DNA of 58,462 nt from a bacterium (GCA_043806935.1 JAZDGP010000003.1:1-58462); one strand, 5' to 3'; shown: positions 19,136-55,578, counted from the first letter of the stretch. A program made the numbers and translations. The notes: a model not told the origin generated them from the letters alone.

Positions 19136-20374
19136 TTAACGGTTAATGTATAGCTGGTAATCCTTGCTGTTCTTCCAAGCTGACCATGGTAATTTAGGAT
19201 GTACAGTCTTGCCTCCCCATTTTAATGCTTTAACAACTGCTTCAACCGGATAACCGCCATAGATGTAGGAATTGACTACAGTGCTCCAATTCTTTGCTGA
19301 AATCTTTATCTTTCCCTTTCCATACACCTTCTCTAATGCTGTTTTTAGTTCAACTGCCATCTGTTTCTCTTGAGCCAAGGACTTTAGTCTAGCTTTGCCA
19401 AAAGCGAATGTTCCTGATTTAAGGCTCAAACCGCCTGCTGGAGTGCTGATTCTTGCTTGATCAAATGCTGGATCATAGATAGCTAATGGGCTGGAAGTAA
19501 TGGCTGTTTCTCCTACAGCTGGAGTACCGCTCTGCCCACCGCTTATGTAAGCCCCACCGCCACCACCACTACTTGAGCCAGAAGATCCTGCTCTGGAAGC
19601 AGCAAATGTTGATGCGCTGGTCGTTGTAAATGAACAGATACTGCTAGAAACCGTACAGGTTGTCAATAATACAGTGGAACTATCAACTGCGGAATACTTA
19701 TAAACATTAAGTGTTTGGCCATTAAAGGAACTACCTACCGTCATAGTGAGAGTAATTGGCTGGCTAAACGTCAATCCTATATTTGATAGGCCATACTCTA
19801 AAGCCTCACCAATCTGATTCTGGCCGCTTGGCAGAGTAGTCAAGGTACCGCTAGCTGTTTGCCGTAATTGATTTAAGTTCATTGTTCCGCCTCCTGTCCT
19901 GGTAATCGTGGTACCTGACGGAATTGCCACTGAATAAGTTCCTGTGCTAGTGGTAGCCGAGAAAGTAATCGGGATATTGAATGTGGCGGCAGTGGCGGCA
20001 TCAACTGATCCAGTGATGCTTGCTAATCCAGCAGCAAAAATTGAAGCGATGGTGTCCCCAGTCGAATCTGTTACCGTAACTGTGGTAGTCGTATAACCAC
20101 CATCACCAGAAGTCGTTAACAGGAAACCATAACCGTAACCATAGCCATATTCTCCATCAAATGAGGCGGTATCCATCCGGTAGCTTAAAGCGGCAACTCC
20201 ATAACCATAGCCGTAACCATAACCATAGCCATAACCCCACCCCTCGTCACCTGTATTTCTGCTAAATTCAGCCAATACCTTACCACCGCCCATAAATAGA
20301 GAAACGATCAGCAATAATGAAACGTAAGCAAAGTAACCTTTTTCTTGAATGAACCCATTTAATGAACTTCCCAT
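19136..20374 (-). CDS. Secreted or anchored protein with Gly-Tyr repeats, a Thr/Ser-rich core and a conserved C-terminal module
   Basis: N-terminal hydrophobic segment, GWGYGYGYGYGYGYGV and EYGYGYGYGF repeats, a T/S-rich middle, the hinge GGGGGAYISGGQ, and C-terminal VVNSYIYGGYPVEAVVKALKWGGKTVHP. Confidence 0.7.
   Translation of the reverse strand: MGSSLNGFIQEKGYFAYVSLLLIVSLFMGGGKVLAEFSRNTGDEGWGYGYGYGYGYGYGVAALSYRMDTASFDGEYGYGYGYGFLLTTSGDGGYTTTTVTVTDSTGDTIASIFAAGLASITGSVDAATAATFNIPITFSATTSTGTYSVAIPSGTTITRTGGGTMNLNQLRQTASGTLTTLPSGQNQIGEALEYGLSNIGLTFSQPITLTMTVGSSFNGQTLNVYKYSAVDSSTVLLTTCTVSSSICSFTTTSASTFAASRAGSSGSSSGGGGGAYISGGQSGTPAVGETAITSSPLAIYDPAFDQARISTPAGGLSLKSGTFAFGKARLKSLAQEKQMAVELKTALEKVYGKGKIKISAKNWSTVVNSYIYGGYPVEAVVKALKWGGKTVHPKLPWSAWKNSKDYQLYINR
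20127..20240 (-). repeat. Two blocks of imperfect hexanucleotide (GGN TAY) repeats encoding (GY)n
   Basis: Plus-strand ccataaccgtaaccatagccatat (20127-20149) and ccataaccatagccgtaaccataaccatagccataacc (20199-20238). Confidence 0.9.
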
Positions 20375-35310: not shown

Positions 35311-36129
35311 TTACCCCTCGCTATAAAGTGAGGGTTTTGTATTTTTCATCCTCCACAGCCACCCAATTGCTAATACAATTACCACAAGACTGACCCATTG
35401 CGGTAGACGTAATCCCAACCAAGCAGGAGTGTTGTCTATTCGTATAAACTCAATACAGAACCTTCCTACACTGTACCAAGCCAAATAATAGGCAAACACA
35501 GCTCCCTTGCCCTTACGAGCCAACAGAGGCTCTATAATGGCTAATAAAGCCACTCCAATAACATTCCAGAGGAATTCATACAAAAAGGCTGGATGGAAGT
35601 AGGAAAAGCCTTCATAGCCAAAGGGACGATGCTGTAGATCAATGGGAATACCCCATTGCTTGTTAGTAGACAACCCAAACAGCTCCTGGTTAAACCAATT
35701 GCCCCAGCGCCCGATTGCTTGCCCCAACAGCAAAGCAGGACTGAACCAATCCGCTACTGCCAAAAACTTGTCTTTTCCTGCCTTCCACCAAGCAGCCAGC
35801 GCTCCAGCCAAGATACCGCCATGGATTGCTAATCCCCCTTCCCACACTTTAATAATCTCTCCTGGATTTGAAAAATAAAACACTGGATTAACAAACAGCA
35901 CTTCGTAGATTCTAGCTCCAGCAAGTCCAGCCACAAAGACAATGAGAACAAAGTCAATCGTCTGGTCCCATGTCCAATTAACTTCAAGAAATTTACGTTT
36001 CCTGAAAGCAATCACTGCCAGAGCAGCAGTCAGAGCCACTAAGTACATAATGCCGTACCAATGAATAGACAAAGATCCCCACTGCCAGAGAGTGGCATTG
36101 GGGATATAATCTCGCAAGAAGTTTCCCAT
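35311..36129 (-). CDS. lgt: Prolipoprotein diacylglyceryl transferase
   Basis: IHWYGIMYLVA, GGLAIHGG and GRWGNWFNQELFG motifs. Its start shares nt 36129 with the upstream stop. Confidence 0.9.
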   Translation of the reverse strand: MGNFLRDYIPNATLWQWGSLSIHWYGIMYLVALTAALAVIAFRKRKFLEVNWTWDQTIDFVLIVFVAGLAGARIYEVLFVNPVFYFSNPGEIIKVWEGGLAIHGGILAGALAAWWKAGKDKFLAVADWFSPALLLGQAIGRWGNWFNQELFGLSTNKQWGIPIDLQHRPFGYEGFSYFHPAFLYEFLWNVIGVALLAIIEPLLARKGKGAVFAYYLAWYSVGRFCIEFIRIDNTPAWLGLRLPQWVSLVVIVLAIGWLWRMKNTKPSLYSEG

Positions 36130-40980: not shown

Positions 40981-43900
40981 CTACCGTTTTGCTCCGCTAT
41001 AAGCAACAGCTCGTACAATATCCCAATGGTTAGCTGATGTAGGCGCGTAACCGAATATCGCCTTAAATGATTTAGCAGCTGCCTTTTCTGAATTAAGATT
41101 CCGCTGGCTAGGGCGCAAACCATAAGTCATCACCACCACGGCCGCGTCGTCCTTGGCATTGGTACGGCTTGGAACACGCTTATAAATCTTCTTAAACGTG
41201 CCTTCAGCTTGTTTTTCAGCAGTCGTCGCTTTTACGCTCGGCCACCGTCCATTGGAAATCTTCACCACATCCAGCCAATCGTCAGTATTAGACGGCCATT
41301 TGCCGTACACTGCCTTATAGCTGTTAACCACGCCTGCGCGCTCTCCAGCTCCTAGCACTTTAGTGGTTGACGTGCCACTTGTTACAAATTGTTCAATAGC
41401 GTTCTGTACGGAAGAAGAAACACTGGTTTTGCCTACGATCTTCTTTGTTAACGATGATACTGAACTGACGTAAGCGCTCTTGTCCATTATAAATCCTGCT
41501 TCCACTGCCAATTCCGCCACACTGCTTGGCGCCGCCGATACTGATGATGGCGTACTCACAGCCGGTGTCGTGGTAACAGTCGTCTGTTGGCTACCTGACT
41601 GCCCTGCTGTCTGTCCTCCAGTGATAAACGCTCCTCCGCCTCCACCTGTTACTACAGTAGCGCTTGTAGTCGCTGACACAGCGCTAGACGCCGCTGACTC
41701 GCCATTGCTGTTAATAGCTGTGATCTTGTAGTAATAAGCTGTGCTGGCGCTTAAGCTGCTATCAGTGTAAGAGGTGGTGGAACCGGATGACACTGTAGGC
41801 TCTGTTCCAACACGGCTAAAGGTGCCGTTAGAGGAAGTGCTGCGGTAAAGATCATAACTAGTTGCTCCGCTCACTTGTGTCCAGCTTAAGGTAATCTGGC
41901 TGCTACTGGCAGCGCTGCCTGCCAAACCGCTTGGAGTGGAAGGCGCCGAAGCGTCAGTGGAAACAATAGGAGCGTATAGGGAGAAGTGGTCTGTTGGAGC
42001 GGAGATGACCACACTGGCCACGCCAGACAAATCTTCCGCGGGATCAGTCACTACATCGCCATCGCTATCTTTATAAGTAATACTGCTGGCTAAAGTGGAC
42101 CAGTTAGCGGATGATTCATCCCAGTACGCCATTGTTAATTTATTAACTTCCGCTTCAGTGTTAATGGAACTGTCGCTAGCTGACGCGACTGCCGCCAATT
42201 CAGCTACTGTAAATTCTTTCTCCACAGTCACTGAATCGTTAAGATTAGTAATGGGATTGCCTGACGCGTCAGTAGCTTTAATTTCAGAGGCTTTTCCTCC
42301 AACCGGCCTCGCTGATCCAGTCTCACGCACGTTATTAGTCTCTTTTGCCGACAGGTTGCTGGCTGAAGTGGAAGTTCCTAACGCGTTAGCTGGAATGTTT
42401 AATCTAATACCAGATGTTAAATCTTCTAGGGTACCGCCATTAGCCGGAGTGATTGGTTTGCTCTTAGGCGGATTAAGAGCGAACGTGGCGTTCAGACCGA
42501 TATTCTTGCTAATCACTGAACCGCCAGTCACGTCAATTGGGTTGCTGGCAAAAGGAGTTTCCGCGTATCCTTCCGCTACCGCGAATACCCGCCAAACACC
42601 GCTGGACACAGGAAGAACGTAATTGCCGTTAGCGTCAGCCTGCGTGCCTGAGTAACCTCCTCCTTGCTTCTCAGCCCTCACAAAAGCGCTAGCCGCTCCA
42701 GCTTCTCCAATTTTCACTTGGCCGGAAATAGTTGTTGAGGCAGCTCCCATTGTCAATGTCTGTCCAATCAGATCAGCGTCAATAACTGAAGCGTTGACAG
42801 AAAACGAACTGGCTTCACGGAAGTACCCAGGCTTCATAGCGTTAACCAAATACGCGCTACTTGCATTCGGAACTTTTAACGTAACAGTGCCGTTGCTGGC
42901 TGTTTTTTGGCCAATGTGAATGCCGGATGTCGGGTTAACCATTTCCACCCAAGCGTCACGTATTGGATTAGTGCCGTCAGTTACAGTTCCGGAAACAGTA
43001 CGCAGTGTCGGCAAAGTAATAGTCAAGCTCTCATTGCCATCAACTGTCACGATGCCTGTGGTGGAGTTATATGTAGTGCCATCTCCTCCAGCAATGTTTC
43101 CTGGAGTCAAAAACATACCAGGCATGCCGACTTGCACTTTGTAACCGCCGTCTTGCGTGGACAATGATGATACTGTCCCATTAGTCACTTCAGCGTGAGA
43201 CCGTTGTCCATTAACAGACACTAAGTCAACAAACATTTTATCAACAGAAGAGGAAACAGTGATCGCAACTGTCCTAACGTTAGCGACAGTGAAATCTTTA
43301 TTGCTCACATCATTCGCGACATCAAAAGCAGCTAGTGGCGGAAGTTCTCCAACACTTGGGATAAACGCCCGAGCAATATAGCCATTGCCAGCTGGTACTC
43401 TTACTGAATACGTGCCATCAACGCCGGTGATTGCCTCGTTAAAATTATTATTGCCCATCACCCTGACAAATACTCCGCTTGCCGGAGAACCTCCGGAAGT
43501 TACTGTGCCTGACACACTGTAGAAAGTGCCAGTGGCAGTCGGAGTGAAGTTAATGTTGGAAGCGCTGCTGCCGTTGATGACTACTGTCTGTTCGCTCAAT
43601 TGTCCATACTGTGGCACGAAAGAACCGACTTTCCATGTTCCGTTTGACACGTACAAAGTATACGATCCAGACGAATTGGCATTAGCGTTAGCATTGCCAG
43701 GCCCGTCAGTGCGGTAAGCGTAGACTGACGCTCCTTGAATAACATTAGTGCCGTCAGTCACCTTGCCGCTAATAGTGTAATCCGGTTTAGCTACTTTCAG
43801 GACAAAAGCGGTGGCAGCTGCTGCGGGCGTAATGGCTGTGGTCGCTCCATCAAGCAACAGATAAGTAGAGGAATCAGAGGTAACCATAACTGGCACTTCT

Positions 43901-46900
43901 TTAGATGGAGGCATACCTGGCAAGAAAGCGCCTACAATGTAGCTGCCATCAGCAACATTCAAGGTGAAAGCTCCAGCAGTATCAGTCTGGGCATGCGTGC
44001 CAAATCCGCCAGTCGGAGAATAAGCATACACTTCAGCGTTAGCCATTACTTTATTACCGCTATCCTTCACAACGCCATTAATAGTCTTGGAAGTGGTGGC
44101 TAAAGTAAACACCAATATTCCATCATTGGCAGTGGCGCTTGATTCTGTAATCGTCGCTCCGTCCACCTGTATATCAACAGGTTTTGGCATTATATAATTA
44201 GGCGCTGGTGGCGGACCGCCAGCCGGACCTTTAGGCATTTGTGGCCCTACTCCCACAAACCACCGACCGTTCCCTAAATTAATAGTGAAATTCTCTGGGT
44301 TATCAGCGTCAGCGTCCAATGTGACTTGTTTTACCTTAAAGCCATTAGGGGAACCTGCAAATATATCCAACGGTTCATTGGCCGGGCCACTAATTCTCAC
44401 CGTTACATTCGTACCGCCAGTAGACGCGTTGCTCAAGCTGAAACTAAACGTCGTGGCGCCGTTCACAACCACCCGTTCCGGACTGCCTTTGCCGTTAAAA
44501 TCAGCGTTGCTTGTGGAAACAGTTTGATCAGTAAATAAGTAATATTCGCCGTTAACCAGGTTGGTAAATGAGTAACTAGCTGTCGCTCCACCGCTAAAAT
44601 TAGCGCTTGTGGTTTCCAAAGGGCCAGTCATCGGAGACATTAAGTACACTTTCATGGTGCCTGTGCCGTTATTACTAGTGGCTGTAATAGTGCCGCCCAA
44701 ACTGCTAGATCCTGACGCTTGTATAAAGAACGGCGTGGAAGATAAAGACTCTACGACCGTGGAACTATCTTTTGTCTTCACATCAACTGTGTAGCCGGAA
44801 GTGTTGAAATCTTTAGGCACAGTGGAATTTTTAATGCCAGCGATATCAATTGTCAGAAAATCATGTCCGTCTGAATTAGTAGCTCCATTAAGATACACGG
44901 TCACGGTTCTGGAAGCTGTATTAACCACAATACCGTCATCCGCGAGTCCCCCTTGCGCGGTTCCCGTGTCGTCGCTGTTAGCGCTGCCTGCGCAAGTTTT
45001 GCCGTTGTTGACTGACGAAGAACACTTAAATTTCACGGTGCCAGACCCAGGGCCGTTAAGATCGCTCCGCATCGGGCTGTTGATATCCTGTTTTGCTCCA
45101 GACACGTCAAAGCCAGTCGGGAAAGTCAGCACTATTGTGCCTCCAGACGGAATTTGCCTAGAGATCGGCAACCTAACGCCGTAAATAGTGGTCTGGCCAG
45201 CCATCATGTTAAATGGACGAACTTCAACCGGCGGAGCAAAACCAAAAGTGGTACTGGAGAAATTGGTTGGAATAAATCCGCCGCCAGAGCCAAAAGCACT
45301 ATCTGATACAGCCATTGGACCAAGCGCTCCTTTGGTAGTAGCGCTGTTTTGGATCACTGACCTGGCTGATTTGCCAGTAGACGGCAGAGTATTGCCGGAT
45401 AAATCTTTAGCTATGTTATCACCGCTCTCATCCAGTGACAGATACAAATCTTTGCCAACTGCCACCGCTAAACCCAACCCTTGGATAGTAACCGTATTGG
45501 TAGAACCGTCGTAATTGAATTGGGCGTTAGAAATGTCCACAATCGTGCCAGCACTATCTGGATTAAATCCAACGTCTCCGTACTTAATCACGTCATAGAC
45601 CGTTGGGTTAAGAACACTGTTCGGCCAATTAATACTATCAGTCACCTTTGCGGCATTCATTGGTTCACTAAAAGTAAGAGCTATCGCGTAATCATCTCCG
45701 TTCATAAATGACACTGCCGGAGCAGCAGAATCAGCAGCGCCAGTGGTAAAGATCCGACTGACCGCGGTAGCCACTGCCACTCCAGTCAAAGACTGCGCTC
45801 CAGTCGTTATGTTAATAGTATAAGTAGTGTTTGGATTTAAAGCGCTCTTTGGAATAAAGAACGCCTGACGTTCCAATGGACGGTACTCCACACTGCCGTT
45901 AATGGCAGTGGAACCTACTGACACGTAGAACGTGCTACTTGTGATAGTAGATGGGTTGATATCACGGCTAAAGCCAATGTTAATCGCTCCAATATTTACA
46001 GGCACGTCAGTGGCTCCGCTATCAGGGAAAGAACCTTGTACGATCGGAGCTGTGGAGTCAGTAGAAGTGCCTACTTTGAATTCACTCATAAACATAGGGT
46101 TAGACGCCTGATCAGGCGGCGATATTGCAATGCCATTGGCTGCTTTAGCTCCGCCCAAGACTTTCAACCGATAGCTAGTACTCGCTGCAAACTGCCCGCT
46201 GTTAAACCCGCTCTTTAAAGTAACAGTCGCTGTTAATTTACTGGATCCTAAAGTGACAGTGTCAATTGCTAATGAGGTTACATCAGTCTCGGTTATGCCG
46301 GAAACACTGTAGAGTTTCACATAATCTTTAAGCAAATAAATGCCTCCGTCATCAGCCATGACGTCAGAAAAATCAATCACCAACTTAGTGTTACGAGGGA
46401 CGTCAAATGATCCTGGCGGCGGAGTCGTTCCTTTGACATGCGGAGGTACAAAAGCGCCAGCGCCAAAAGTACCGCCTCCGGAAAAACCACCAGTAGTAGA
46501 ATTAAACCCAATAAAATTAGCTGTTGAATTAGTAGTGAACGTAAACGCATAACTTCCGTCAGGTTGGTTGCCTTGTATGGAATTACCTGCCGTGTCCGTA
46601 ACATTGGAAGACACAACCACCGCTATGGTTTTATTATCGCCAAAGGTATTAGTGCCGCTAAATGACCAAACAGCCATATTGGATTCAGGTGGCACGCCTG
46701 GAATATTCGGGTTGCTTGAATAATACGCCCAGCTGCCTTTACTGGAGGTGATATCAACCAATTCGCCTGTAGACGCGTCATTTACTTTAAGGTTGCCGAT
46801 TGCTGTTGCTGCTGACTGGCTCATTGCCTTATCAAACACGACGAATATTTTGAAGTTGGAATCACCGCCTGGGATGCCAGACATACCATCCATAGGGCCG

Positions 46901-49491
46901 TTAAACTTAACTCTCGGTTTAGTAATATCTCCCCCAGAACCGCCAGAAAATCCTTGGCTTAATTGGAATCCAATACCTGTCGCTCCAGCTGGTAAACCGC
47001 CAATCTGACGATCACCATACCCGTCTTTAATCGCAACTATATCGTAAGTACCAGCAGTCAAACCACTCAAAGTATACGTACAGTTGCTGTCATTGGACGA
47101 CGTAGTGTAAAAACTAGTGCCTTCAGCAAATACGGTAGCTTGCCTCACTCCAGTACTGCAAATATTAGACGAATCTTTAACAGTGCCCGCAATAGAGCTA
47201 GCTCCAACTGCTACAGTAGCTAATTCGAACGGAGTGTTGCTTGGTCCTTTAAACATCGCTGTATTGCTGCCATCAGACGCTTGGAGGAAATAACGTACAA
47301 TCGATCCTACCGCTCCAACCGCCTCTGACGGAATAGTATAACGATAATAACCGCTTCCAATAGACGTACCAGTCACTTCCGTGGTCGGAGTGCAATCGCT
47401 GCCTGCGCAGTATAACAATTTAGCGCTTAAGGCTGGACTGGTTGTGGAGGTAGCTACGTTATCAAAAACACGTGCGAAAACGTTAAGTGCAGATGATTCA
47501 GCTGCTCTGAAAATCGGACGATGCATAATGTTCGGCGGAATAGTGTCTGTCACTGACGCTGTGGTAGTAAATCCTCTCACTGGCGTGCTTTCTAAAGCAG
47601 TAGCTGAACCCAAAGAAGACGTGGTTTGTTCCGCGTATGTTCTCACCATCCAGTAATACGTAGTATTCGGAGCAAGCTGAGCTGGCTGGGTAAGAATCAA
47701 GAAATTGCCGGCTCCATACCCAATATTACACATACCTGGATCGCAATGACTGCCATTACCTGACACATACTTTGGAAAAGCATAATCCCACAAAGCTGTG
47801 CCTGAAAAATCAGATGTTGATTTAATAGTTATCCTGTATGAATTAACTGAACCGCTGGAACTTGGATTAAAAGTAAAGAATGGCGGCAAAGGCATACTGG
47901 TAGCGCCATCGCTAGGAGCCAACAAGGTTAGACCGCTGCTGCCTCCACCAAAAACCGTAAAACCGCTTGGAATAGTAACTGTTTCACTGCCAGTAGTAAC
48001 TCTCACATCCCTACTACCAGCTGACGCTCCTCCACCAACAGCCAAAGTAAATGTAAGGTTTGTAGCGCTGGAAGATGCCACGCCAGACACAACCAAACTA
48101 GTATCATTTGATCCGCTGGATAAAAATTGTACAGTACTAGAAACACTAAAATGTGTGTTAACGCCAGTAATGGTTACCAAAAAACTGGAACCGCCGATAG
48201 CCCCACCAGCTGGAATAACACCAGTAATCCCTGGCACTCCCCCGCCTCCTGAAGGAGCGATATTAATAGAAAACATCCTATTGCCAACCTTTGGCGTGCC
48301 TATGGTGCTATCCGTAACAGTAACACCAACCATATAGCTACCCGGCACATTGGCAATAGTGCCAGTCAGCTTGCCAGCGCTAGTCAAAGTCAATCCTAAT
48401 GTTGTTAAAAGACCAGTATCCCCTTCACTGGTAGCTGTCCACGTATATGGTTCAGTACCATTGGAAGCAACAAAAGTAACTAACGGAGAACCGCTTGTAT
48501 ACGCAGTGCCAACTGTTGTTGATGGTATTGACGGCGTGGTAATCCCCAATGGGCTACTTATACCAACCGTATCTGTGCCAATCGCTTCTCCTGACATAGC
48601 GGCTATCTTATTGCTCCCAGCCGCGATCGTGGCTGGCGTACCGTCAAAATCTTCCGCACTCAAAGCCGCTGACATTGTCAAAATTGCGAAATCCTGCCCT
48701 GCAGTGTGGCTAATAACGCTAATTGTTTGCGCGCTGCCTCCACCATCCACATAAGTAAATGGATCTGACGTGCTAACAAAAACAATACTGCCTCCCCCAA
48801 CTTTTTGGACTGGACGATTAAATCGCACATTCAAGGTTGGGCTGCCAACAGAACCTGATACACTGACAATTTCTGGCGAAGTGGCATCCACCCTGACTTC
48901 ATTAGCAGAGAAGTTACTTGACGGACCATTACCATCCGTGGTGGTTACACCATTACTTGGAATTGTAACCATAATCCGATCGTCATTAGAAGCTGTACCA
49001 GATGTTCTAACAGTTACATAAAAAACAACCGCCGAACCATTAGTCAACGAAACCGGCGTGGCTGGAATTAAGGTAACGGCATTACTTGTAAATACTGGTG
49101 CTGGTTCACTAGCTAATGCAATTGGCTCGTCAAAAGGATCAAAAGAGCCGGCAGTAGGACCAGCGTCATTATATAAAGCTACTCCTGAACTGCCATTAGT
49201 AGCCAAAGAGGCAAGATCAGAGGTGGCAAAGCCAGCACCGCTGAAACTAGCTGTAACACTGGTCAATGTTTGGCCAACCTGGCTGGCAGTAACAGACAGT
49301 TTCACCAAAGCGATTGGTGAAGAATTGACTGAAATTGGAGCACCAGGGAAGTTGCCATTAATAAGCCCAGATGTGCTTACTGCTAGACTCATTGCTGCTT
49401 GAACTGGCAACGGCAAAAAAGCCGTTATGCCCATGGACCAAAAAATAGTGGCCACTATGGTCATAACCGGCAGAAACTTTTTTCTTAGCAT
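40981..49491 (-). CDS. Giant (2836 aa) multidomain cell-surface adhesin-like protein
   Basis: Signal peptide (...LPLPVQA). Several SbsA/Big_5-like Ig modules, for example DSTAPIVQGSFPDSGATDVPVNIGAINIGFSRDINPSTI. At least six CarboxypepD_reg-like modules, for example ISGKVTDGTNVIQGASVYAY. Also a He_PIG-like module, an IPT-like module, one FN3 (ITLSWTQVSGATSYDLYRS...YYYKITAINSNGES), a Gly5 hinge and a triple-repeat C-terminal module. Confidence 0.85.
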   Translation of the reverse strand: MLRKKFLPVMTIVATIFWSMGITAFLPLPVQAAMSLAVSTSGLINGNFPGAPISVNSSPIALVKLSVTASQVGQTLTSVTASFSGAGFATSDLASLATNGSSGVALYNDAGPTAGSFDPFDEPIALASEPAPVFTSNAVTLIPATPVSLTNGSAVVFYVTVRTSGTASNDDRIMVTIPSNGVTTTDGNGPSSNFSANEVRVDATSPEIVSVSGSVGSPTLNVRFNRPVQKVGGGSIVFVSTSDPFTYVDGGGSAQTISVISHTAGQDFAILTMSAALSAEDFDGTPATIAAGSNKIAAMSGEAIGTDTVGISSPLGITTPSIPSTTVGTAYTSGSPLVTFVASNGTEPYTWTATSEGDTGLLTTLGLTLTSAGKLTGTIANVPGSYMVGVTVTDSTIGTPKVGNRMFSINIAPSGGGGVPGITGVIPAGGAIGGSSFLVTITGVNTHFSVSSTVQFLSSGSNDTSLVVSGVASSSATNLTFTLAVGGGASAGSRDVRVTTGSETVTIPSGFTVFGGGSSGLTLLAPSDGATSMPLPPFFTFNPSSSGSVNSYRITIKSTSDFSGTALWDYAFPKYVSGNGSHCDPGMCNIGYGAGNFLILTQPAQLAPNTTYYWMVRTYAEQTTSSLGSATALESTPVRGFTTTASVTDTIPPNIMHRPIFRAAESSALNVFARVFDNVATSTTSPALSAKLLYCAGSDCTPTTEVTGTSIGSGYYRYTIPSEAVGAVGSIVRYFLQASDGSNTAMFKGPSNTPFELATVAVGASSIAGTVKDSSNICSTGVRQATVFAEGTSFYTTSSNDSNCTYTLSGLTAGTYDIVAIKDGYGDRQIGGLPAGATGIGFQLSQGFSGGSGGDITKPRVKFNGPMDGMSGIPGGDSNFKIFVVFDKAMSQSAATAIGNLKVNDASTGELVDITSSKGSWAYYSSNPNIPGVPPESNMAVWSFSGTNTFGDNKTIAVVVSSNVTDTAGNSIQGNQPDGSYAFTFTTNSTANFIGFNSTTGGFSGGGTFGAGAFVPPHVKGTTPPPGSFDVPRNTKLVIDFSDVMADDGGIYLLKDYVKLYSVSGITETDVTSLAIDTVTLGSSKLTATVTLKSGFNSGQFAASTSYRLKVLGGAKAANGIAISPPDQASNPMFMSEFKVGTSTDSTAPIVQGSFPDSGATDVPVNIGAINIGFSRDINPSTITSSTFYVSVGSTAINGSVEYRPLERQAFFIPKSALNPNTTYTINITTGAQSLTGVAVATAVSRIFTTGAADSAAPAVSFMNGDDYAIALTFSEPMNAAKVTDSINWPNSVLNPTVYDVIKYGDVGFNPDSAGTIVDISNAQFNYDGSTNTVTIQGLGLAVAVGKDLYLSLDESGDNIAKDLSGNTLPSTGKSARSVIQNSATTKGALGPMAVSDSAFGSGGGFIPTNFSSTTFGFAPPVEVRPFNMMAGQTTIYGVRLPISRQIPSGGTIVLTFPTGFDVSGAKQDINSPMRSDLNGPGSGTVKFKCSSSVNNGKTCAGSANSDDTGTAQGGLADDGIVVNTASRTVTVYLNGATNSDGHDFLTIDIAGIKNSTVPKDFNTSGYTVDVKTKDSSTVVESLSSTPFFIQASGSSSLGGTITATSNNGTGTMKVYLMSPMTGPLETTSANFSGGATASYSFTNLVNGEYYLFTDQTVSTSNADFNGKGSPERVVVNGATTFSFSLSNASTGGTNVTVRISGPANEPLDIFAGSPNGFKVKQVTLDADADNPENFTINLGNGRWFVGVGPQMPKGPAGGPPPAPNYIMPKPVDIQVDGATITESSATANDGILVFTLATTSKTINGVVKDSGNKVMANAEVYAYSPTGGFGTHAQTDTAGAFTLNVADGSYIVGAFLPGMPPSKEVPVMVTSDSSTYLLLDGATTAITPAAAATAFVLKVAKPDYTISGKVTDGTNVIQGASVYAYRTDGPGNANANANSSGSYTLYVSNGTWKVGSFVPQYGQLSEQTVVINGSSASNINFTPTATGTFYSVSGTVTSGGSPASGVFVRVMGNNNFNEAITGVDGTYSVRVPAGNGYIARAFIPSVGELPPLAAFDVANDVSNKDFTVANVRTVAITVSSSVDKMFVDLVSVNGQRSHAEVTNGTVSSLSTQDGGYKVQVGMPGMFLTPGNIAGGDGTTYNSTTGIVTVDGNESLTITLPTLRTVSGTVTDGTNPIRDAWVEMVNPTSGIHIGQKTASNGTVTLKVPNASSAYLVNAMKPGYFREASSFSVNASVIDADLIGQTLTMGAASTTISGQVKIGEAGAASAFVRAEKQGGGYSGTQADANGNYVLPVSSGVWRVFAVAEGYAETPFASNPIDVTGGSVISKNIGLNATFALNPPKSKPITPANGGTLEDLTSGIRLNIPANALGTSTSASNLSAKETNNVRETGSARPVGGKASEIKATDASGNPITNLNDSVTVEKEFTVAELAAVASASDSSINTEAEVNKLTMAYWDESSANWSTLASSITYKDSDGDVVTDPAEDLSGVASVVISAPTDHFSLYAPIVSTDASAPSTPSGLAGSAASSSQITLSWTQVSGATSYDLYRSTSSNGTFSRVGTEPTVSSGSTTSYTDSSLSASTAYYYKITAINSNGESAASSAVSATTSATVVTGGGGGAFITGGQTAGQSGSQQTTVTTTPAVSTPSSVSAAPSSVAELAVEAGFIMDKSAYVSSVSSLTKKIVGKTSVSSSVQNAIEQFVTSGTSTTKVLGAGERAGVVNSYKAVYGKWPSNTDDWLDVVKISNGRWPSVKATTAEKQAEGTFKKIYKRVPSRTNAKDDAAVVVMTYGLRPSQRNLNSEKAAAKSFKAIFGYAPTSANHWDIVRAVAYSGAKR

Positions 49492-49589: not shown

Positions 49590-49624
49590 TACAAAACTAC
49601 CCCGCCCTGCAAAGGACGGGGTAG
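49590..49624 (-). terminator. Rho-independent terminator after the S-layer-like gene
   Basis: Stem ctaccccg (49597-49604) / cggggtag (49617-49624) plus extra GC pairs. The minus strand continues ttttgtatttg. Confidence 0.75.
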
Positions 49625-49686
49625 TTGGCCGGTTGCCTAAGACATTCTTAGGTTTCCTTCAACGTTATGGCAACTAATCTTAAAGA

Positions 49687-52600
49687 TTAGAGGCCTTGAC
49701 GAGTGAAGGTGTCAGTCGGCAGGTTCTTCACCAAGAATCCGTTGTTGTAATCCGCGCTAGAGGTCGTGTGGCCAGTAGTATCGGATTGGTCGGAGAAGAT
49801 GAAGTCGCCAGTGACTGAACCGGAAGCGGCATTCGCGGCGCTAGTAGCAGTGGTGTTGATAATACTTGTGCTCAAGGCTGCGCCAGTCAAGCTTCCGCTG
49901 ACATTAGCGCGCACTTCAAACACTTTCATACTACCAGCAGCCACTTCTATTTCGCGAGCAGCCGCTAGGCTGATGATCAACGTGCCTCCAGTAGTCGCTA
50001 CCGGAGCCGTGATATCGGCTGTAGCGGACTGGGTGGTCGGGCTGGAAGAAACATCAACCAAGCTGTAGTCAGCAGCGGCAGTAGTTACTGCCACATCGCT
50101 GGCCGAAACGTTGAAGGAGACTTTCTTAACAGTCACATCCCCCTTCGCGTCAGCCGTCACCGTGAAGCGGTAGATCGGAGCGTTCGCGCCAGTGATGATG
50201 GTAGAACCAATACCATTAGTGGTTGTCTGGATGGTCGGAGCGGACTTGTACAGCTTATGGGTCGCGCCAGCAGTATCAGAAGCGACCACTGAAGTGCCAG
50301 TCAGCCGAGTGCCAGAACCAACACCAATGGCTTCAGCGGTGGTGGAAGTGCCGGCGTTCAAGGTTACGGCAAATCCGGTACCGCCAGAAACCGCGCCGCC
50401 AGACACGTACTTGAGATCAGCCTTAACGGTAATCGTCTTGTACGAATCCTTTGGAACAGTAATGGTCAACCCATCAAACTGAGCCACGCCGGAGCTGTCA
50501 ATGGTGAGCGGCTGGGTAGCACCCTTGCCGCCTTGGCCATAGACATCGCTGCCGTCAACAAGCCACAAACCAAGATAGTTGGCAGCCGGAGCGGCAGTGA
50601 ACTTCAGCTTAGTAACCTTGATATCCTCGTTTGAAGCGAAGAACCGGTACTTAGCCATCACAACGCCAGTGGAACCAGCGACTTTAACAGCTGCTTGGCT
50701 TTCAGTGTCAGTAGGAGCGGCCGAAGCAGTCAAGGAGCCGGAACCAACAACAGTCACAGCCACGGTTGGGCTGGTTTCCGCGTTCACGCTCGCGGTCGGA
50801 CCGGAAACGGAAGCGGTATTGCCTTGGGTATCCCGAGCAACCACGTTGGTTGAGTAATTAGTACCAGAACCAGTGGTGCCGGAACCAGCCAGTAAGTCAA
50901 AGGCTAACCGATAGCTGTAGAAGGTGCCGATGTTGTTGTTAATCGCAGTGTTGGAGATGTCAGCGCGCGCCAACAAAGTCTTGGTAGAACCAGACGGAAT
51001 GTTGAATAACAGGTTGTCAAACATGACAGTACCGTTGGAATTGACAGACTCAACATCTCCAATTGCTAACCCAGTGCCAGAGTCAAACAACTGCATGGAC
51101 GCAATGCGCTCATAAAGCGCAACTGCTGTGGCAGTGCCAGCGTCATCAGCGCTAGTACAGTCAACGTTAGTATCAGTACCGCCGCTGTCATAATCAGCTG
51201 AAGAACCGTTAGCACAGAGAGCGATTCCGACGCCTCCGATGTACCCATGTAGCTTCAAACTAGTCATGGTAGCATCAGCGCCAGAACCGGCTCGCAGGTT
51301 AATGCCAAGGAAATTCTTAGCCAAAGAACCACGAGTATAGGACTGGCTGGTCGGGTTGCCTGACAGAGACACGGTCAGAGCGGCTGCCCGGACAGTGTGC
51401 TGGTTGCCAACCAAAGAGGTAGCAGGCACGATGTCAGAGGCAGTCAAGTTAAGACCAGTGTCCAAGTTCCGGACATAAGTGGCTGAAAGAGCACTTAAGG
51501 TCGCTTTGATTGTCGCATCAGCAGTAATGGTGTTAGCGATATTCGCGGTGATCTTAAGGTTCGCCACTTGTCCAGCGACAAAGCTGTACGGACCAGACAA
51601 GGTAATGGTCTGGCTTGAATTAATGCCTATACCGGACAGGTCAGTCGGACCAAAGAGCAAAGCACCTGTATCCGCGTTGCTGATCTTCACGTTAGTGAAG
51701 TTAGCGGAACCAGAGCCATCCACTAAATCTACTGTTGAGGCATCACCATCCAAGGTAACAGATACCTGACGAACTTCAATGTTCGCCTGGGCAGCCATTT
51801 TACCAGTCCACAACACTACGTCAGTTTGGTTCTTAGCCAAATCAGCCGAGGTTGGGCCAGTGAAGGTGGTCGTGATCTGCGCGCCGCTTAAGGTAATGAG
51901 ATGGGATGTAGCAACGCCAGACGATGTGTACGTGCTGTTAGTGACAGACACGCCAAAACCGTAGGTATTGCCAACCGCGTACAGATCAGTTGACTGATCC
52001 AGGTACAGGTTGATAGTCGTGCTCACCCGAGCTTGCAAGCCAATGTCAGCGTACACCTCAAAAATGCGAGTATCGCCTTTGGCCAGCGTGAACGGGGTGC
52101 TGAACACGAAGTTGACTAAGTTGTTGGCGTCAATGCCAGTGGCAGAGGCTACAACCGTGCCGCCTTGCTTAAGCTTAAGGTTCATCAATTGAGTTTTCTC
52201 AATGGAACCAGCTTGATACAAGGTAATCCGCTTGACAGTGATGTCTTCAGCGGAGCCAGCTCCTAATTGGAAGGCGCTGATCGCGCGGTCCAAGTCACCG
52301 ATCTTAGCCGAGGTGTAAGAACCTGACTTAGTAACAGTGACGGTTCCCGCGGCAGCGGATGAGTAACTCATCATGTTGCCACGGACCGGGAAGGTACCAG
52401 CGACTGAAACAGGACCAACAACGTCAGAAGCAGCCACTACTTCCAAGGAATCAACGTTGCCGGAGATGCCTGTGGAAGCCATGTCAGCTGACACGGTGAT
52501 CACTTTGGTGCTATTAGCGGCGATACTCAAATTGAGCCCGCTGAAAGTAGCAGTATTGGAGCTGGAGTTAATGGTACGACCAAGAGTCAACCGCAGATTA

Positions 52601-53505
52601 CCGTCATACAGGTAAACGTTGTTGAAGTCAGTGGTCGCGCCAGCGCCAATCCGGTGAAGCACGATCGAGTTGATCTTGGTGCTCTGGGCGCCAGTGGCCA
52701 AGCGGATGTTCAAGAACGGCACATTAGAAGCGCCGGATGGAACGACCGCGGATGCCGGACTGGTTGAGTCCAAAGAAATGGTTACTGCCCCTTCGGTAGA
52801 AGTGCTACCGGAGCCTGAGCTACCGCCAGCGCTAACCTCCAGGCTGTAATCAGCTAATTTGGAGGTAACGGAAGAACCGTTAGAATAACTAATGCTGGAC
52901 GGAGCGGTCACCACGTATGCTTGGTTGAAATTGTTAGCAGTGAAGCCGTCCGAGGTAACCGGGCGCTTCGCGCTATTTTCAACCATGTAGATTGTCGGAT
53001 CACCAGCGTAGGTGACCAACTGGCCATCAACGTAGCCAGCGGAAGCAATCTCGCTGCCAATGGAGTAGTTGCTGACAAAGAAAGCGTCAGGCAAATCCAC
53101 GACCATTGAAGCCCAATTGCTGCCGTACATGGTGCGGGCAATATCTTCTGATTTAACCCAGTGGAGCACGCCGGTCTTTCCGACCACGTACACCTTGGGA
53201 TCAGTGGTAACTTTCACTAACTTCGTGCCAGGGCGCACAACCGCGTTCTTTGCGAGCGGATAGGATTGGAGCTCGCTCAAAGAAACGGTCTGAACGCTGG
53301 AGAAGTCCTTGTACCAGCTGAAATACACTGAAGAAGTCGGGAAAACATACCGCTTGCCTCCTGAAAGGAGGTAAAGGGCAGAATCTCCCGCGTGCTTGAT
53401 CAGTGAACCGTCAGTAGCTGCCTTGGCAGGAGTAAAACCCCCAACCACGGTCATGACTACCATAACGGACAGAGCTGAAACAAACAGTTTGCGTAAAGTA
53501 GACAT
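49687..53505 (-). CDS. S-layer-like surface protein (1272 aa) built from repeated beta-sandwich modules
   Basis: Start at the ATG at 53505 gives a signal peptide MSTLRKLFVSALSVMVVMTVVGGFTPAKA. It has three N-terminal repeats of about 55 aa, about seven repeated modules, only two Cys, Ala/Thr/Ser/Gly/Val richness and a C-ending codon preference. The 61-codon upstream extension in the track ORF is not protein-like. Confidence 0.8.
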   Translation of the reverse strand: MSTLRKLFVSALSVMVVMTVVGGFTPAKAATDGSLIKHAGDSALYLLSGGKRYVFPTSSVYFSWYKDFSSVQTVSLSELQSYPLAKNAVVRPGTKLVKVTTDPKVYVVGKTGVLHWVKSEDIARTMYGSNWASMVVDLPDAFFVSNYSIGSEIASAGYVDGQLVTYAGDPTIYMVENSAKRPVTSDGFTANNFNQAYVVTAPSSISYSNGSSVTSKLADYSLEVSAGGSSGSGSTSTEGAVTISLDSTSPASAVVPSGASNVPFLNIRLATGAQSTKINSIVLHRIGAGATTDFNNVYLYDGNLRLTLGRTINSSSNTATFSGLNLSIAANSTKVITVSADMASTGISGNVDSLEVVAASDVVGPVSVAGTFPVRGNMMSYSSAAAGTVTVTKSGSYTSAKIGDLDRAISAFQLGAGSAEDITVKRITLYQAGSIEKTQLMNLKLKQGGTVVASATGIDANNLVNFVFSTPFTLAKGDTRIFEVYADIGLQARVSTTINLYLDQSTDLYAVGNTYGFGVSVTNSTYTSSGVATSHLITLSGAQITTTFTGPTSADLAKNQTDVVLWTGKMAAQANIEVRQVSVTLDGDASTVDLVDGSGSANFTNVKISNADTGALLFGPTDLSGIGINSSQTITLSGPYSFVAGQVANLKITANIANTITADATIKATLSALSATYVRNLDTGLNLTASDIVPATSLVGNQHTVRAAALTVSLSGNPTSQSYTRGSLAKNFLGINLRAGSGADATMTSLKLHGYIGGVGIALCANGSSADYDSGGTDTNVDCTSADDAGTATAVALYERIASMQLFDSGTGLAIGDVESVNSNGTVMFDNLLFNIPSGSTKTLLARADISNTAINNNIGTFYSYRLAFDLLAGSGTTGSGTNYSTNVVARDTQGNTASVSGPTASVNAETSPTVAVTVVGSGSLTASAAPTDTESQAAVKVAGSTGVVMAKYRFFASNEDIKVTKLKFTAAPAANYLGLWLVDGSDVYGQGGKGATQPLTIDSSGVAQFDGLTITVPKDSYKTITVKADLKYVSGGAVSGGTGFAVTLNAGTSTTAEAIGVGSGTRLTGTSVVASDTAGATHKLYKSAPTIQTTTNGIGSTIITGANAPIYRFTVTADAKGDVTVKKVSFNVSASDVAVTTAAADYSLVDVSSSPTTQSATADITAPVATTGGTLIISLAAAREIEVAAGSMKVFEVRANVSGSLTGAALSTSIINTTATSAANAASGSVTGDFIFSDQSDTTGHTTSSADYNNGFLVKNLPTDTFTRQGL

Positions 53506-53873
53506 TTTATTCTGGTTAATTGTGTTGCTGAAGCGAGTGCTCGCTTTATGCCGCCAAACGATAAATCCTGACCTCACGCGCCCGGGACGGTCTAACCGTC
53601 TGCCGACCTTTATGGCTACCGTGAGTTCAGGCGCCTGGACAACAATAATTGCGCCCTCATTTCTCCAACAAGCGAATAAATTGGGCAATCATGCTCTGTC
53701 TAGAAGCACTTTCGCCTTGTCAAGGATCAATCTGCGTAATCTTACGCTGATTGTCCCCTCTCCAATTAAGGAGAGGTACAAACTGCCACCCAGCTCGTCG
53801 TTTACATTAACGACTGCTTCGGATGACAGGCCTGGTTCCTCATGTTTCAAAGAACCAAACCCGCGACCCGAAG

Positions 53874-54923
53874 TTATTCTTGTGGCGCTGGAGCCACTGG
53901 CTGATCCACCGGATTCTTTACTTCATTTTTACTTTGATCTGAAGTTCCATCCACTTGAAGAATAGGGACTACCGGCGTCGCTGATTCAGCTTTGCTAACC
54001 TGCTGTTCAGAAACAACCGCTAAATCCTGCACTTCAATTACCTTAGCGAGCGCGCCTGACAAATCATCTTTAGCAATCAGCCGTTCAGCCTCGTTTAATA
54101 CCGCGTCCGCCTGCTTAGAAACACTCTTAGCTGTTGATAACTGCCCGTTAACTTGATTGCTTAACGCCGCAATCCGCAACTTAATGGATTCTACTTGCTC
54201 CTTTTGGTTGGCAATCCGAGCCGTCAATTGATCCTTTAATGATTGCTTATCAGTGCCAGCGCTGGCAATAATTCCCAAGGCCTTGCTGGAACTATTTAAG
54301 CTTGCCTGAATAGTTTCCGATACTGCCACTGCAACTGCCGGCGCGGCTGTTGGACTCTTCCTTAACTGGGCAAGAACCGTTGAAGTAGCCAATGCCTGAC
54401 TGTTTAACTTTTCAGCCAACTTTAACAGATGGTTATTCGCGTCTCCAGCTGCTATTGCCACCTCCAAACTATTCTTAGCAGCCTCGACCTCAGATTTCAA
54501 ACTGCGTACAGCCACCTGCACTACAGAACTCGGCAATCGGCTAATCTTGTCATAAGCGGCTAAATCGCCAAGCTCGGCCAACCGCCGATCAGCAAACCGT
54601 AAATGAAGCTCCGCTTCCCTTTCCGTTGACCAAGCAAACGCCAACATGGTCCGTTCAATGCCGATCTTCAATCCATAGAGCGGGCTGCCGGGAAGGCTCT
54701 GGTTGCTAGCTGCGACTGTACCAATACCGCCAACTAAAAGAATTATTGCGACTATACTACTGACTGCCAAACGAAAACCACGGATAACCACAACCGCTGC
54801 TGGCCTTGGCTGATATGACACTACTTCAGCGAGCAACCGCTGCTTCAAACGCAAAGCAACCGTTGGATCCATCTGGATCCTCGGATCATTGAAATAGGTC
54901 TTTAATTCACTGGCGAATTGCAT
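53874..54923 (-). CDS. Single-pass anti-sigma-factor-like membrane protein (DUF5667-like ectodomain)
   Basis: It starts 4 nt after the sigma gene. It has a short cytoplasmic N-terminus, one TM (VSSIVAIILLVGGIGTVAA), LPGSPLYGLKIGIERT followed by a long helical ectodomain, and a low-complexity tail. There is no HxxxCxxC zinc motif. Confidence 0.6.
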   Translation of the reverse strand: MQFASELKTYFNDPRIQMDPTVALRLKQRLLAEVVSYQPRPAAVVVIRGFRLAVSSIVAIILLVGGIGTVAASNQSLPGSPLYGLKIGIERTMLAFAWSTEREAELHLRFADRRLAELGDLAAYDKISRLPSSVVQVAVRSLKSEVEAAKNSLEVAIAAGDANNHLLKLAEKLNSQALATSTVLAQLRKSPTAAPAVAVAVSETIQASLNSSSKALGIIASAGTDKQSLKDQLTARIANQKEQVESIKLRIAALSNQVNGQLSTAKSVSKQADAVLNEAERLIAKDDLSGALAKVIEVQDLAVVSEQQVSKAESATPVVPILQVDGTSDQSKNEVKNPVDQPVAPAPQE

Positions 54924-54927
54924 TTAT

Positions 54928-55578
54928 TTATAAATTAATCTGTTCTCTTAACGTTTGTACTGCCCGATGAAGCAATACCTTAACAGCGTTCTTTGACTTA
55001 TCCAGCACTTCCGCGATCTCACTAACTTTCAGATCATGTCCATACCGTAACAACAATGCTTCCCGATATTCATCCTTAAGCGTACGGAACGCTTGGTTGA
55101 TCTTCATCACCCTTTCCTTACGTTCCAAAGCGTCAACCAACAATGTCGGAGCGTCAACTATCAGCCGTTCATCAATCACTTCCAAATCAATCATTCCTTC
55201 TTCTCCTTCAATCGTTACATCCAGCGATACGGTTTGGACTGACAACTTACGGAAATGATCGGCAATCAGCCTCCTAGCCACCTGATAAATAAAAGCCATC
55301 AAGTGTTTGATCTCCGTACCTTTAACTACTGCTTCCCAAACCCGCAAGAACGTATCGTGCGTCAAATCCTCAGCCACCTGGATATTCCCAACCCTATAAT
55401 AGAGAAAACGATAAATCGGTTGGTGAAAACGATCCCATATTTCACTATATGTTCTGGTAAGTTGTTCACTATCTCCACTTTCTTGGGCTACCCGCAAACC
55501 GCGGTTAAGCTTGATTACCAGCCACTTATCCGCAATCGGACGAATGGCTTGGCCCAATATTTGTTTAGGTGCGTTCAT
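54928..55578 (-). CDS. ECF-type RNA polymerase sigma-70 family factor
   Basis: Region 2 (IYRFLYYRVGNIQVAEDLTHDTFLRVWE) and region 4 HTH (EYREALLLRYGHDLKVSEIAEVLDKSKNAVKVLLHRA), with no region 3. Confidence 0.85.
   Translation of the reverse strand: MNAPKQILGQAIRPIADKWLVIKLNRGLRVAQESGDSEQLTRTYSEIWDRFHQPIYRFLYYRVGNIQVAEDLTHDTFLRVWEAVVKGTEIKHLMAFIYQVARRLIADHFRKLSVQTVSLDVTIEGEEGMIDLEVIDERLIVDAPTLLVDALERKERVMKINQAFRTLKDEYREALLLRYGHDLKVSEIAEVLDKSKNAVKVLLHRAVQTLREQINL

Follow-up and report, generated by a model that had tools for sequence, protein, structure and literature searches.

A gene at positions 49687-53505 on the minus strand of a 58,462-nucleotide stretch of bacterial DNA (GCA_043806935.1 JAZDGP010000003.1:1-58462, hereafter the window) probably encodes, judging from sequence comparisons, a major and very highly expressed surface protein, most likely a surface-layer (S-layer) or S-layer-like subunit. 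The reading frame starts with the ATG at 53505, ends with the stop codon at 49687-49689 and specifies a secreted protein of 1272 residues, which is 100% identical to a protein from a metagenome-assembled genome (MAG) at NCBI, annotated there as 'hypothetical'. The host is an ultra-small bacterium of the Patescibacteria. Selection for high expression is very probably what explains the pronounced codon skew of this gene, and that its product is an S-layer subunit proper is about an even call. The S-layer label is plausible, and draws together a signal peptide, an anchor-like N-terminal module, a chain of beta-sandwich modules and a signature of high expression.

Full-length relatives of the protein, 1170-1490 residues long and 31-38% identical to it, number in the hundreds (one listed match covers just 12% of the query), the nearest homolog among the matches listed being 38% identical; the named ones among these matches are assigned to Patescibacteria or Uhrbacteria. 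A scan of one genome per species returned at least 553 relatives, nearly all of equal length.

Codon usage of the gene and of its orthologs

The gene is set apart within the window by its third codon positions. Its G+C content at these positions (GC3) is 0.570, with C at 0.36 (C3) and A at 0.10 (A3), as compared with 0.33-0.60, 0.08-0.30 and 0.17-0.36, respectively, in the 43 other window genes, and with a window median GC3 near 0.43. It is the most extreme of the 44 genes in both C3 and A3, and second only to rplT (0.60) in GC3; the frequency of G at third positions (G3) is 0.21, in a range of 0.12-0.37 for the other genes, most of which are higher. When C-ending and T-ending codons are counted for Phe, Tyr, Asn, Asp and His, together with ATC and ATT for Ile, the gene has 177 versus 111 and the rest of the window 1025 versus 2211 (odds ratio 3.4, p 6e-23). 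An earlier note on this DNA had described the gene as more GC-rich than its surroundings, and the coding sequence (CDS), with a GC content of 0.527, does exceed the neighbouring 1-kb windows (0.36-0.50). The bias is located at third positions and runs evenly along the whole gene (3.8 kb). It is not an effect of amino acid composition, because the similarly composed 2836-residue protein encoded next to it, also rich in Thr, Ser, Ala, Gly and Val judging by its translation, has a GC3 of 0.41 and a C-ending fraction of 0.35.

The contrast that the same note had drawn with a paralog in the window is real codon by codon. This paralog (5103-6230, minus strand), of 375 residues and ordinary codon usage by codon counts, corresponds to the last two modules of the surface protein (residues 927-1272 by the bounds of the local alignment; 49690-50727, minus strand), and BLASTP aligns it to residues 933-1272 with 51% identity over 344 residues (E 1e-102). 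Relative codon frequencies in the surface-protein gene and in the paralog are, respectively, 0.68 and 0.21 for TTC, 0.74 and 0.29 for AAC, 0.69 and 0.33 for TAC, 0.74 and 0.38 for AAG, 0.52 and 0.38 for ATC, and 0.03 and 0.29 for ATA. Among 178 identical aligned residues, G or C at the third position in the surface-protein gene faces A or T in the paralog at 71 sites and the converse holds at 20 (p 7e-8). Spot counts given earlier also turn out to be exact, such as that for Phe in the last 45 codons (four TTC and no TTT, versus none and two in the paralog).

The ribosomal and translation genes of the window (rplA, rplK, rplT, infC and nusG, three of them ribosomal protein genes) shift in the direction of the surface-protein gene for Asn, Tyr, Asp, Lys, Phe, Ile and the Ser codon TCC, and prefer AAC, TAC, GAC, AAG and TCC as it does. 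Their pooled C-ending fraction is 0.49, versus 0.32 for the rest of the window (odds ratio 2.1, p 2e-5 against the other window genes), 0.34 for the paralog and 0.61 for the surface-protein gene. In the comparison with rplA, rplK and rplT that had been proposed as a check, the ribosomal and translation genes are thus unlike the paralog (0.49 versus 0.34) and displaced toward the surface-protein gene. Taken alone, this comparison leans toward an effect of expression and does not settle the question.

The same bias recurs across the family. Eighty loci with their flanks were fetched from the species-representative scan, and the 62 with a complete ortholog and at least six neighbouring genes were kept; the GC3 of the neighbouring genes in these Patescibacteria loci spans 0.28-0.86. 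The C-ending fraction of the ortholog lies above the mean of its neighbours in 61 of the 62 loci (median z +2.3), and in 39 it surpasses that of every other gene of the locus, while AAG usage is above that of the neighbours in 62 of 62; relative to its own genome, the ortholog is biased irrespective of genomic GC (61/62 for C-ending codons, 62/62 for AAG). Secondary paralogs present in orthologous loci are less biased in 8 of 9 comparisons for C-ending codons and 9 of 9 for AAG, and in 54 of 55 loci the bias of the ortholog exceeds that of the syntenic genes for a sigma factor and a DUF5667 protein (see below), each taken separately.

These shifts can be expressed as a family axis, i.e., the mean log-ratio of codon usage of the ortholog over its neighbours, computed from other genomes only. 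Along it, TTC, AAC, AAG and GGT rise in 98% of loci, ATC in 95%, GCT and CGC in 94% and TAC in 92%, and ATA, GGA, GGG, AGT, CCC and CGG fall in at least 94%, which is the classic shape of translational selection. The window gene follows this axis (Spearman 0.68) and ranks first of the 44 window genes on it (z +4.3), ahead of rplK in second and rplT in third place, with rplA 12th. Two open reading frames (ORFs) without a family match also stand high, at 8927-9523 (minus strand, 198 residues, 4th) and at 19136-20374 (minus strand, 412 residues, 5th of 44), and may encode further abundant proteins.

The other explanation that had been offered for the codon skew is recent horizontal acquisition of the gene from a GC-richer donor, with codons that have not yet drifted to those of the host. 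A GC3 of 0.57 against a median near 0.43, and an in-window paralog with native usage, would agree with such an origin, as would the preference for CCG, CGG, CTG and GAG, an excess that is common neither to the ribosomal genes nor to the family axis, where these codons are neutral or lowered. However, with 61 of 62 orthologs biased, acquisition would call for a series of separate transfer events, each time with a donor that has more C-ending codons. Moreover, the gene lies in a conserved sigma-DUF5667-target order, where its partners have native codons; the shift is mostly from T to C with avoidance of A, and not a general rise in GC (G3 0.21); there is no integrase, mobile-element gene or flanking tRNA at the gene borders in the window; and the nearest homolog is merely 38% identical. 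The atypical codon usage ends at the borders of the CDS, which differs from the pattern of a genomic island. Because the bias tracks the family across base compositions and stops at the gene borders, recent acquisition is disfavoured, and we consider it very unlikely. High expression is supported over recent transfer by the family-wide bias (61/62), by the unbiased syntenic genes and by the first rank among 44 on the family axis. The excess of CCG, CGG, CTG and GAG could stem from a tRNA pool particular to this lineage or from a replacement long ago; an old orthologous replacement of the surface-protein gene is a conceivable history.

A cause unrelated to translation, namely a mutational bias that is local or linked to transcription, or else selection acting on the structure or stability of the mRNA, is highly improbable. 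It would find some support in the fact that the surface-protein gene is the only window gene with more C than G on its coding strand, the GC skew of the plus strand turning positive at 49-53 kb, and also in the structured leader described below and in the ability of heavy transcription itself to bias mutation. Yet deamination of the non-template strand would raise T over C, the opposite of what is seen, and the bias sits at third positions, uniformly over 3.8 kb. The preferred codon set is, in addition, canonical for translational selection, and rplK and rplT shift likewise. Under selection for high expression, a large output would have favoured C-ending codons for Phe, Tyr, Asn, Asp, His and Ile, together with AAG, GGT/GGC, GCT and CGC, at the expense of A-ending codons, ATA, GGA/GGG and AGR, and the paralog, presumably of low abundance, and the neighbouring genes would have retained the AT-leaning usage of the genome. 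In all likelihood, the codon phenomenon is the ordinary adaptation of a very abundant protein.

Modules of the probable surface protein

Several features that the earlier note had read from the protein hold. The N-terminus (MSTLRKLFVSALSVMVVMTVVGGFTPAKA|A; residues 1-29, 53419-53505, minus strand) reads by eye as a Sec signal peptide, and its n-region, h-region and A-x-A pattern are kept in the family consensus (...ASAA). The protein is rich in Thr (12.3%), Ser (12.3%), Ala (11.9%), Gly (9.7%) and Val (9.4%), has Cys only at positions 764 and 783, and in its mature form is slightly acidic (89 Asp and Glu versus 73 Lys and Arg). Searches of Pfam, NCBIfam and PDB sequences gave no family for the 1272-residue protein or for a profile of 32 family members, only 6 of these 32 having an fn3_5 match in Pfam. 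No match to SLH (PF00395) was found in the window protein at E <= 0.01 or in the 32 members at E <= 1, and none to CW_binding_2 (PF04122) in either.

The signal peptide is followed by a module of three repeats of about 55-60 residues (residues 30-215; 52861-53418, minus strand), defined by repeat similarity and by the AlphaFold model, which we regard as a putative wall anchor. The triple repeat had been proposed at 52815-53418 (residues 30-230), and is borne out by the similarity of the first and third repeats (z 6.1) and of the second and third (z 3.8), that of the first and second not being significant as a pair. Structure prediction, also suggested at the time, gives three similar beta-beta-beta-alpha units: the AlphaFold model of residues 30-235, built on an alignment of 119 sequences, has a mean predicted local distance difference test score (pLDDT) of 90 and a predicted template modelling (TM) score of 0.83. 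This module is the best-conserved part of the family. Its top PDB fold matches are weak and fall on the periplasmic repeats of EccB1 and EccB5, from type VII secretion (3x3n, 4kk7 and 7nps; E 1e-3, probability 0.9, TM about 0.25), followed, again weakly, by a chain of the enterococcal endolysin LysIME-EF1 (6ist; 66 aligned columns, 20% identity). EccB repeats have been likened to the wall-binding fold of phage PlyCB. Although these are the best structural matches of the triple repeat, the EccB and LysIME-EF1 repeats are otherwise arranged, with a TM of 0.25 and 10-14% identity. A viral fold library returned mostly uncharacterised phage proteins, along with weak endolysin matches.

The N-terminal module is also reused in other proteins. 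When its profile was searched against all ORFs of 82 loci, the first two repeats were found at the C-terminus of three Peptidase_S8 subtilases and at either end of proteins with fn3 or immunoglobulin (Ig) domains, and directly preceding PG_binding_1 in a Kelch-repeat protein (L052:14041-15666, L020:13666-15303, L061:6624-8369, L005:6239-10681, L006:7824-9440 and L077:2092-3462). Because it is reused at either terminus of secreted proteins, as SLH and CWB2 anchors are, a role in wall anchoring is suggested, and the module is probably, by this analogy, a mobile wall-anchoring unit without a Pfam entry.

The layout of the protein can be compared with that of known S-layer systems. Like the SLH-type S-layer proteins of Bacillota, Thermus and Deinococcus (B. 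anthracis Sap and EA1, Geobacillus SbsB, Thermus SlpA), it combines a Sec signal and three tandem N-terminal repeats of about 55 residues with an extensive assembly region rich in beta structure, and it is slightly acidic and very poor in Cys. It differs from them in having no SLH match and in the predicted beta-beta-beta-alpha fold of its repeats, SLH repeats being helical. In C. difficile, SlpA and the other Cwp proteins share a triple-repeat anchor, CWB2, that is common to the S-layer subunit and to other wall proteins, proteases included, and the occurrence of the present module on three Peptidase_S8 proteins and on Ig- or fn3-domain proteins, at either terminus, is the counterpart here; the sequences are nonetheless unrelated, the repeats are smaller and there is no sign of cleavage into two subunits. 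In layout and function, the gene looks like an S-layer gene of Gram-positive type that belongs to neither the SLH nor the CWB2 group.

The remainder of the protein (residues 236-1272; 49690-52800, minus strand) is an all-beta region, modelled by AlphaFold as a monomer with strands only and a pLDDT of 87, and with a low-confidence loop between Cys764 and Cys783. Seven beta-sandwich-like modules had been proposed for it; the repeated modules are there, and their number is closer to six, based on a recurring motif ('...F..l.f.ip.g.tK.i.v.aDi'; four instances by pattern and two by eye) together with dips in model confidence. Each module spans 130-220 residues. Foldseek matches for this region are generic multi-Ig chains only (alpha-2-macroglobulin, PrgB, integrins, ciliary proteins), with the S-layer protein csg of Haloferax volcanii (7ptp) at rank 31 (E 7e-12). 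The latter is likewise a chain of about six Ig-like beta-sandwich domains, but it is archaeal and anchored through its C-terminus, and its TM of 0.13-0.16 is no better than that of alpha-2-macroglobulin, PrgB or integrins. As far as fold comparison goes, the result appears compatible with an S-layer protein and does not separate an S-layer protein from an adhesin.

The paralog of the last two modules carries a lipoprotein-type signal (LIGC, or ...FLIGC with the preceding residues), and the window also contains lgt, at 35311-36129. The surface protein ends in a WSD.S..H...D motif that is nearly invariant in the family; in its longer form, F(V/I)WSD.SD...H..SS.DY/W.N (49690-49830, minus strand), it is retained in the paralog (5106-5240, minus strand), and could be a site of interaction or metal binding common to both proteins.

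The fold comparison bears directly on another reading, in which the gene encodes a highly expressed surface protein that forms no lattice, for instance a wall-anchored fibre, an adhesin or the host-attachment protein of an epibiont. Ig-like domains strung in a chain are just as characteristic of adhesins, and PrgB, integrin and alpha-2-macroglobulin outrank the S-layer match. The putative N-terminal anchor also occurs on non-structural proteins such as subtilases, and Patescibacteria are often episymbionts whose surface proteins have been proposed to contact hosts. Against this, the C-ending fraction is the highest of the locus in 39 of 62 loci and the gene stands above the ribosomal genes on the family axis, a better fit to a bulk structural protein. 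Furthermore, length (1170-1490 residues) and architecture are uniform over hundreds of species, when adhesins usually vary in repeat number. Lastly, cryo-electron tomography by Luef and colleagues in 2015 reportedly showed a periodic surface layer on groundwater cells of the candidate phyla radiation (CPR), and such a layer needs a subunit. Overall, a protein without a lattice is unlikely. As an S-layer or S-layer-like subunit, the protein would be exported through Sec and freed of its signal peptide, and then attached to the cell wall by the N-terminal triple repeat, from which the roughly six beta-sandwich modules would reach outward and pack into a surface array.

Leader RNA, terminator and linked sigma factor

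S-layer genes are typically monocistronic; a long 5' leader with secondary structure precedes the coding region, a strong terminator follows it, and codon usage is that of the most highly expressed genes. The strong terminator claimed for the window gene is indeed present, 61 nt past the stop codon (49595-49626, minus strand): a terminator scan and the sequence give a stem of 14 bp with 8 GC pairs, a loop of 4 and a T-rich tail. Upstream, 368 nt of intergenic region (53506-53873, minus strand) form the leader and/or the promoter, as compared with 147-788 nt (median 263) in the orthologs. A promoter scan found no sigma-70-like promoter in these 368 nt, and neither GGAAC/TGAAC nor TTGACA was seen at a consistent position in the leaders of orthologous loci. 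The gene appears to form a separate transcription unit, with a strong terminator and a structured leader conserved in the family.

The leaders of the family share a hairpin. A heptamer, AAGGTCG, is found in 54 of 56 leaders (55 loci and the window), mostly as AAAGGTCGA and typically some 110 nt upstream of the start codon. In minimum-energy structures the common fold consists of a helix, P1, that encloses a 5' bulge of 10-13 nt with the motif, and then of a second hairpin, P2, stacked on P1; the 9-nt bulge AAAGGUCGA is near-invariant across the loci examined and both helices covary. Since alignments of the leaders with MAFFT are out of structural register, a covariance model was built from a seed of four sequences in register, with one iteration. 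Searched on both strands of 1.57 Mb, it finds 51 loci at E <= 0.1 (e.g., L014:9848-9893, L025:9858-9909 and L047:9911-9955), all of them on the coding strand; wherever the position of the ortholog is recorded, they lie just upstream of it. Standard pairs occupy 95% of cells, a figure that drops to 61% in shuffled controls and to 33-46% if partners are displaced by 1-3 columns, and compensatory changes affect 15 of 15 pairs, with 287 double-change cells versus 82 expected; fitting the alignment to the model inflates these pairing figures, and the controls still leave a wide margin. A statistic for helices that enclose the motif did not discriminate (46 of 54 real leaders versus 60% of shuffles) and was dropped.

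In the window, the hairpin lies at 53567-53631 (minus strand) and is assigned by its conserved 9-mer, its position and its matching architecture: P1 is CCUGA-CUCACG/CGUGAG-UCAGG, with AAAGGUCGG in the 5' bulge and AAGGTCG at 53610-53604, and P2 is GACGG-UUAGA-CCGUC. It has a 12-bp P1 and an extra inner helix of 3 bp, and is without the upstream blocks found elsewhere. These further blocks, UCCUGACGGGCGGGGGA ... GCCCGCUCGUGU ... AUCCUCGCCA, precede the hairpin in other loci (L008:8149-8294, L009:9820-9965, L060:9816-9960 and others), with variable hairpins inserted between them, and they cannot be made out in the window. In many loci, RNAalifold pairs GGCGGGGG with UCCUCGCC in this upstream part, both sides being invariant and hence without support from covariation. 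Blocks and hairpin together suggest a larger, multi-helix leader RNA. Most orthologs also have a small hairpin (e.g., ACCC-nnnn-GGGU) whose end lies 4-8 nt upstream of the AUG, and they lack a clear Shine-Dalgarno sequence; the start region of the window gene (53506-53545, minus strand), AACCAGAAUAAA-AUG, likewise has no clear one, which is odd for a gene presumed to be very heavily translated.

Two other identities of the leader element were considered. Known riboswitches (c-di-AMP, ykkC and ZTP types) have no Rfam support, as no Rfam 15 family reached its gathering score in the window leader or in six orthologous loci, with only chance-level matches at E <= 10. AAGGTCG as the -10 element of an extracytoplasmic function (ECF) promoter was rejected as the main interpretation, because the covarying P1 strand upstream of it would then escape transcription. 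We think it most likely that the hairpin is a 5' structure which would stabilise the transcript or direct its processing and which a protein would recognise by its sequence, the near-invariant bulge amid covarying helices suggesting such a partner beyond mere stability. In Lactobacillus slpA and E. coli ompA, a stable stem-loop in the 5' untranslated region is thought to prolong the life of the mRNA. The leader described here resembles these in placing a stem-loop in a long upstream region before a presumed abundant envelope protein, but differs in its near-invariant 9-nt bulge AAAGGUCGA with covarying helices and in having no Rfam match.

Upstream of the leader are the two genes of the conserved order. 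The first encodes an ECF-type factor of the sigma-70 family (54928-55578, minus strand; 216 residues, Pfam Sigma70_r2 and r4_2) and the second a DUF5667 protein of 349 residues with one predicted membrane helix (53874-54923, minus strand; PF18915, E 9e-13). The order sigma factor, DUF5667, surface-protein gene, all co-oriented, is found in about 70 loci with upstream sequence and likewise in the window, and both partners have unbiased, native codon usage in the window and elsewhere. In the DUF5667 protein, a single hydrophobic helix separates a short N-terminal stretch from a long helical part on the outside, possibly the layout of an anti-sigma factor, and a Pfam scan found no recognised anti-sigma domain in it. 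Their arrangement looks like that of a sigma/anti-sigma pair dedicated to the surface-protein gene, which this linked pair may regulate. We know of no counterpart in SLH systems to the ECF-sigma/DUF5667 synteny or to the AAAGGUCGA hairpin.

Weight of the evidence and neighbouring features

A number of results weigh against a highly expressed S-layer-type protein. The S-layer part is affected by the absence of any sequence match to a described S-layer family or anchor domain (SLH, CWB2 and SLAP searched), by the weak fold matches of the N-terminal module (TM about 0.25) and by the generic ones of the beta region. As to expression, the window has only three ribosomal protein genes, and the flanks of the 82 fetched loci have none, nor any glycolytic genes. 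Over 59 codons, the shift of the surface-protein gene correlates weakly with that of the ribosomal and translation set (Pearson 0.09, Spearman 0.25), because the choices for Pro, Arg and Gly differ: the surface-protein gene uses CCG for 66% of Pro and CGC or CGG for 79% of Arg, with no AGR, versus CCT/CCA and AGR in the ribosomal genes. CGG, CTG and GAG are raised in the window gene and lowered in the family axis. Finally, the window hairpin is divergent and not significant alone (14.8 bits, E 0.24; fold of -30.4 kcal/mol, z -1.6), and was outscored by a chance match of the covariance model in a gpmI-like gene (973-2550).

Literature searches on an S-layer protein of Patescibacteria or CPR bacteria, on its expression and on a CPR leader RNA turned up nothing specific to this family; one preprint reports that S-layer proteins were identified in Patescibacteria, and states no more. 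The protein family, the anchor module, the sigma/DUF5667 partners and the leader RNA are undescribed so far. The most comprehensive proposal, that the family supplies the S-layer subunit in a large branch of Patescibacteria (records titled Uhrbacteria, Falkowbacteria and the Parcubacteria group) and comes with a new wall-anchor module, a dedicated sigma/DUF5667 pair and a new leader RNA, is tentative and taken as a whole rather doubtful. Were it true, a new triple-repeat anchor, shared with secreted subtilases, would play the role that SLH or CWB2 have elsewhere, and the ECF-sigma and membrane DUF5667 pair could sense the status of the envelope or of the S-layer and set subunit synthesis. The AAAGGUCGA bulge would then be a binding or processing site that uncouples the high output of the gene from the low output of its regulators, and codon selection would act even in tiny, presumably slow-growing cells.

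Patescibacteria, i.e., the candidate phyla radiation, account for much of bacterial diversity, and their envelope, through which they meet host cells, is known almost only from images; a conserved family of about 1250 residues, as the likely bulk surface protein, offers a concrete target for proteomics, for antibody or cryo-electron tomography labelling and for structural work. Its codon signature could mark highly expressed genes in genomes that come without expression data, and suggests translational selection in very small genomes. The N-terminal module would allow the wall-attached proteome to be listed, and current databases lack both the sigma/DUF5667 pair and the covarying leader RNA, which can be tested as regulatory parts. 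If the abundance of the protein proved ordinary, the finding would shrink to an unexplained but conserved codon skew.

Other features of the locus deserve mention. The 2836-residue secreted protein encoded directly downstream (40981-49491, minus strand) has Big_5, CarboxypepD_reg and fn3 domains and ordinary codon usage. Its C-terminus has about three repeats of some 35 residues (...YKAVYGKWPS..DDW..., ...FKKIYKRVPS... and ...FKAIFGYAPTS..HW...), which may be a different anchor, and relatives of parts of this protein follow the ortholog only in L079. A tmRNA gene lies at 12282-12662 (minus strand), with an Rfam score of 100 bits, and was not reported by ARAGORN. Among the public records, many with a locus of Patescibacteria type are titled 'uncultured Gammaproteobacteria bacterium' (L006, L009, L013, L014, L019 and others), and those of L064, L074 and L076 are titled as Methylomirabilis, Acutalibacteraceae or Halanaerobium MAGs; wrong labels or wrong binning of the contigs are the probable cause.

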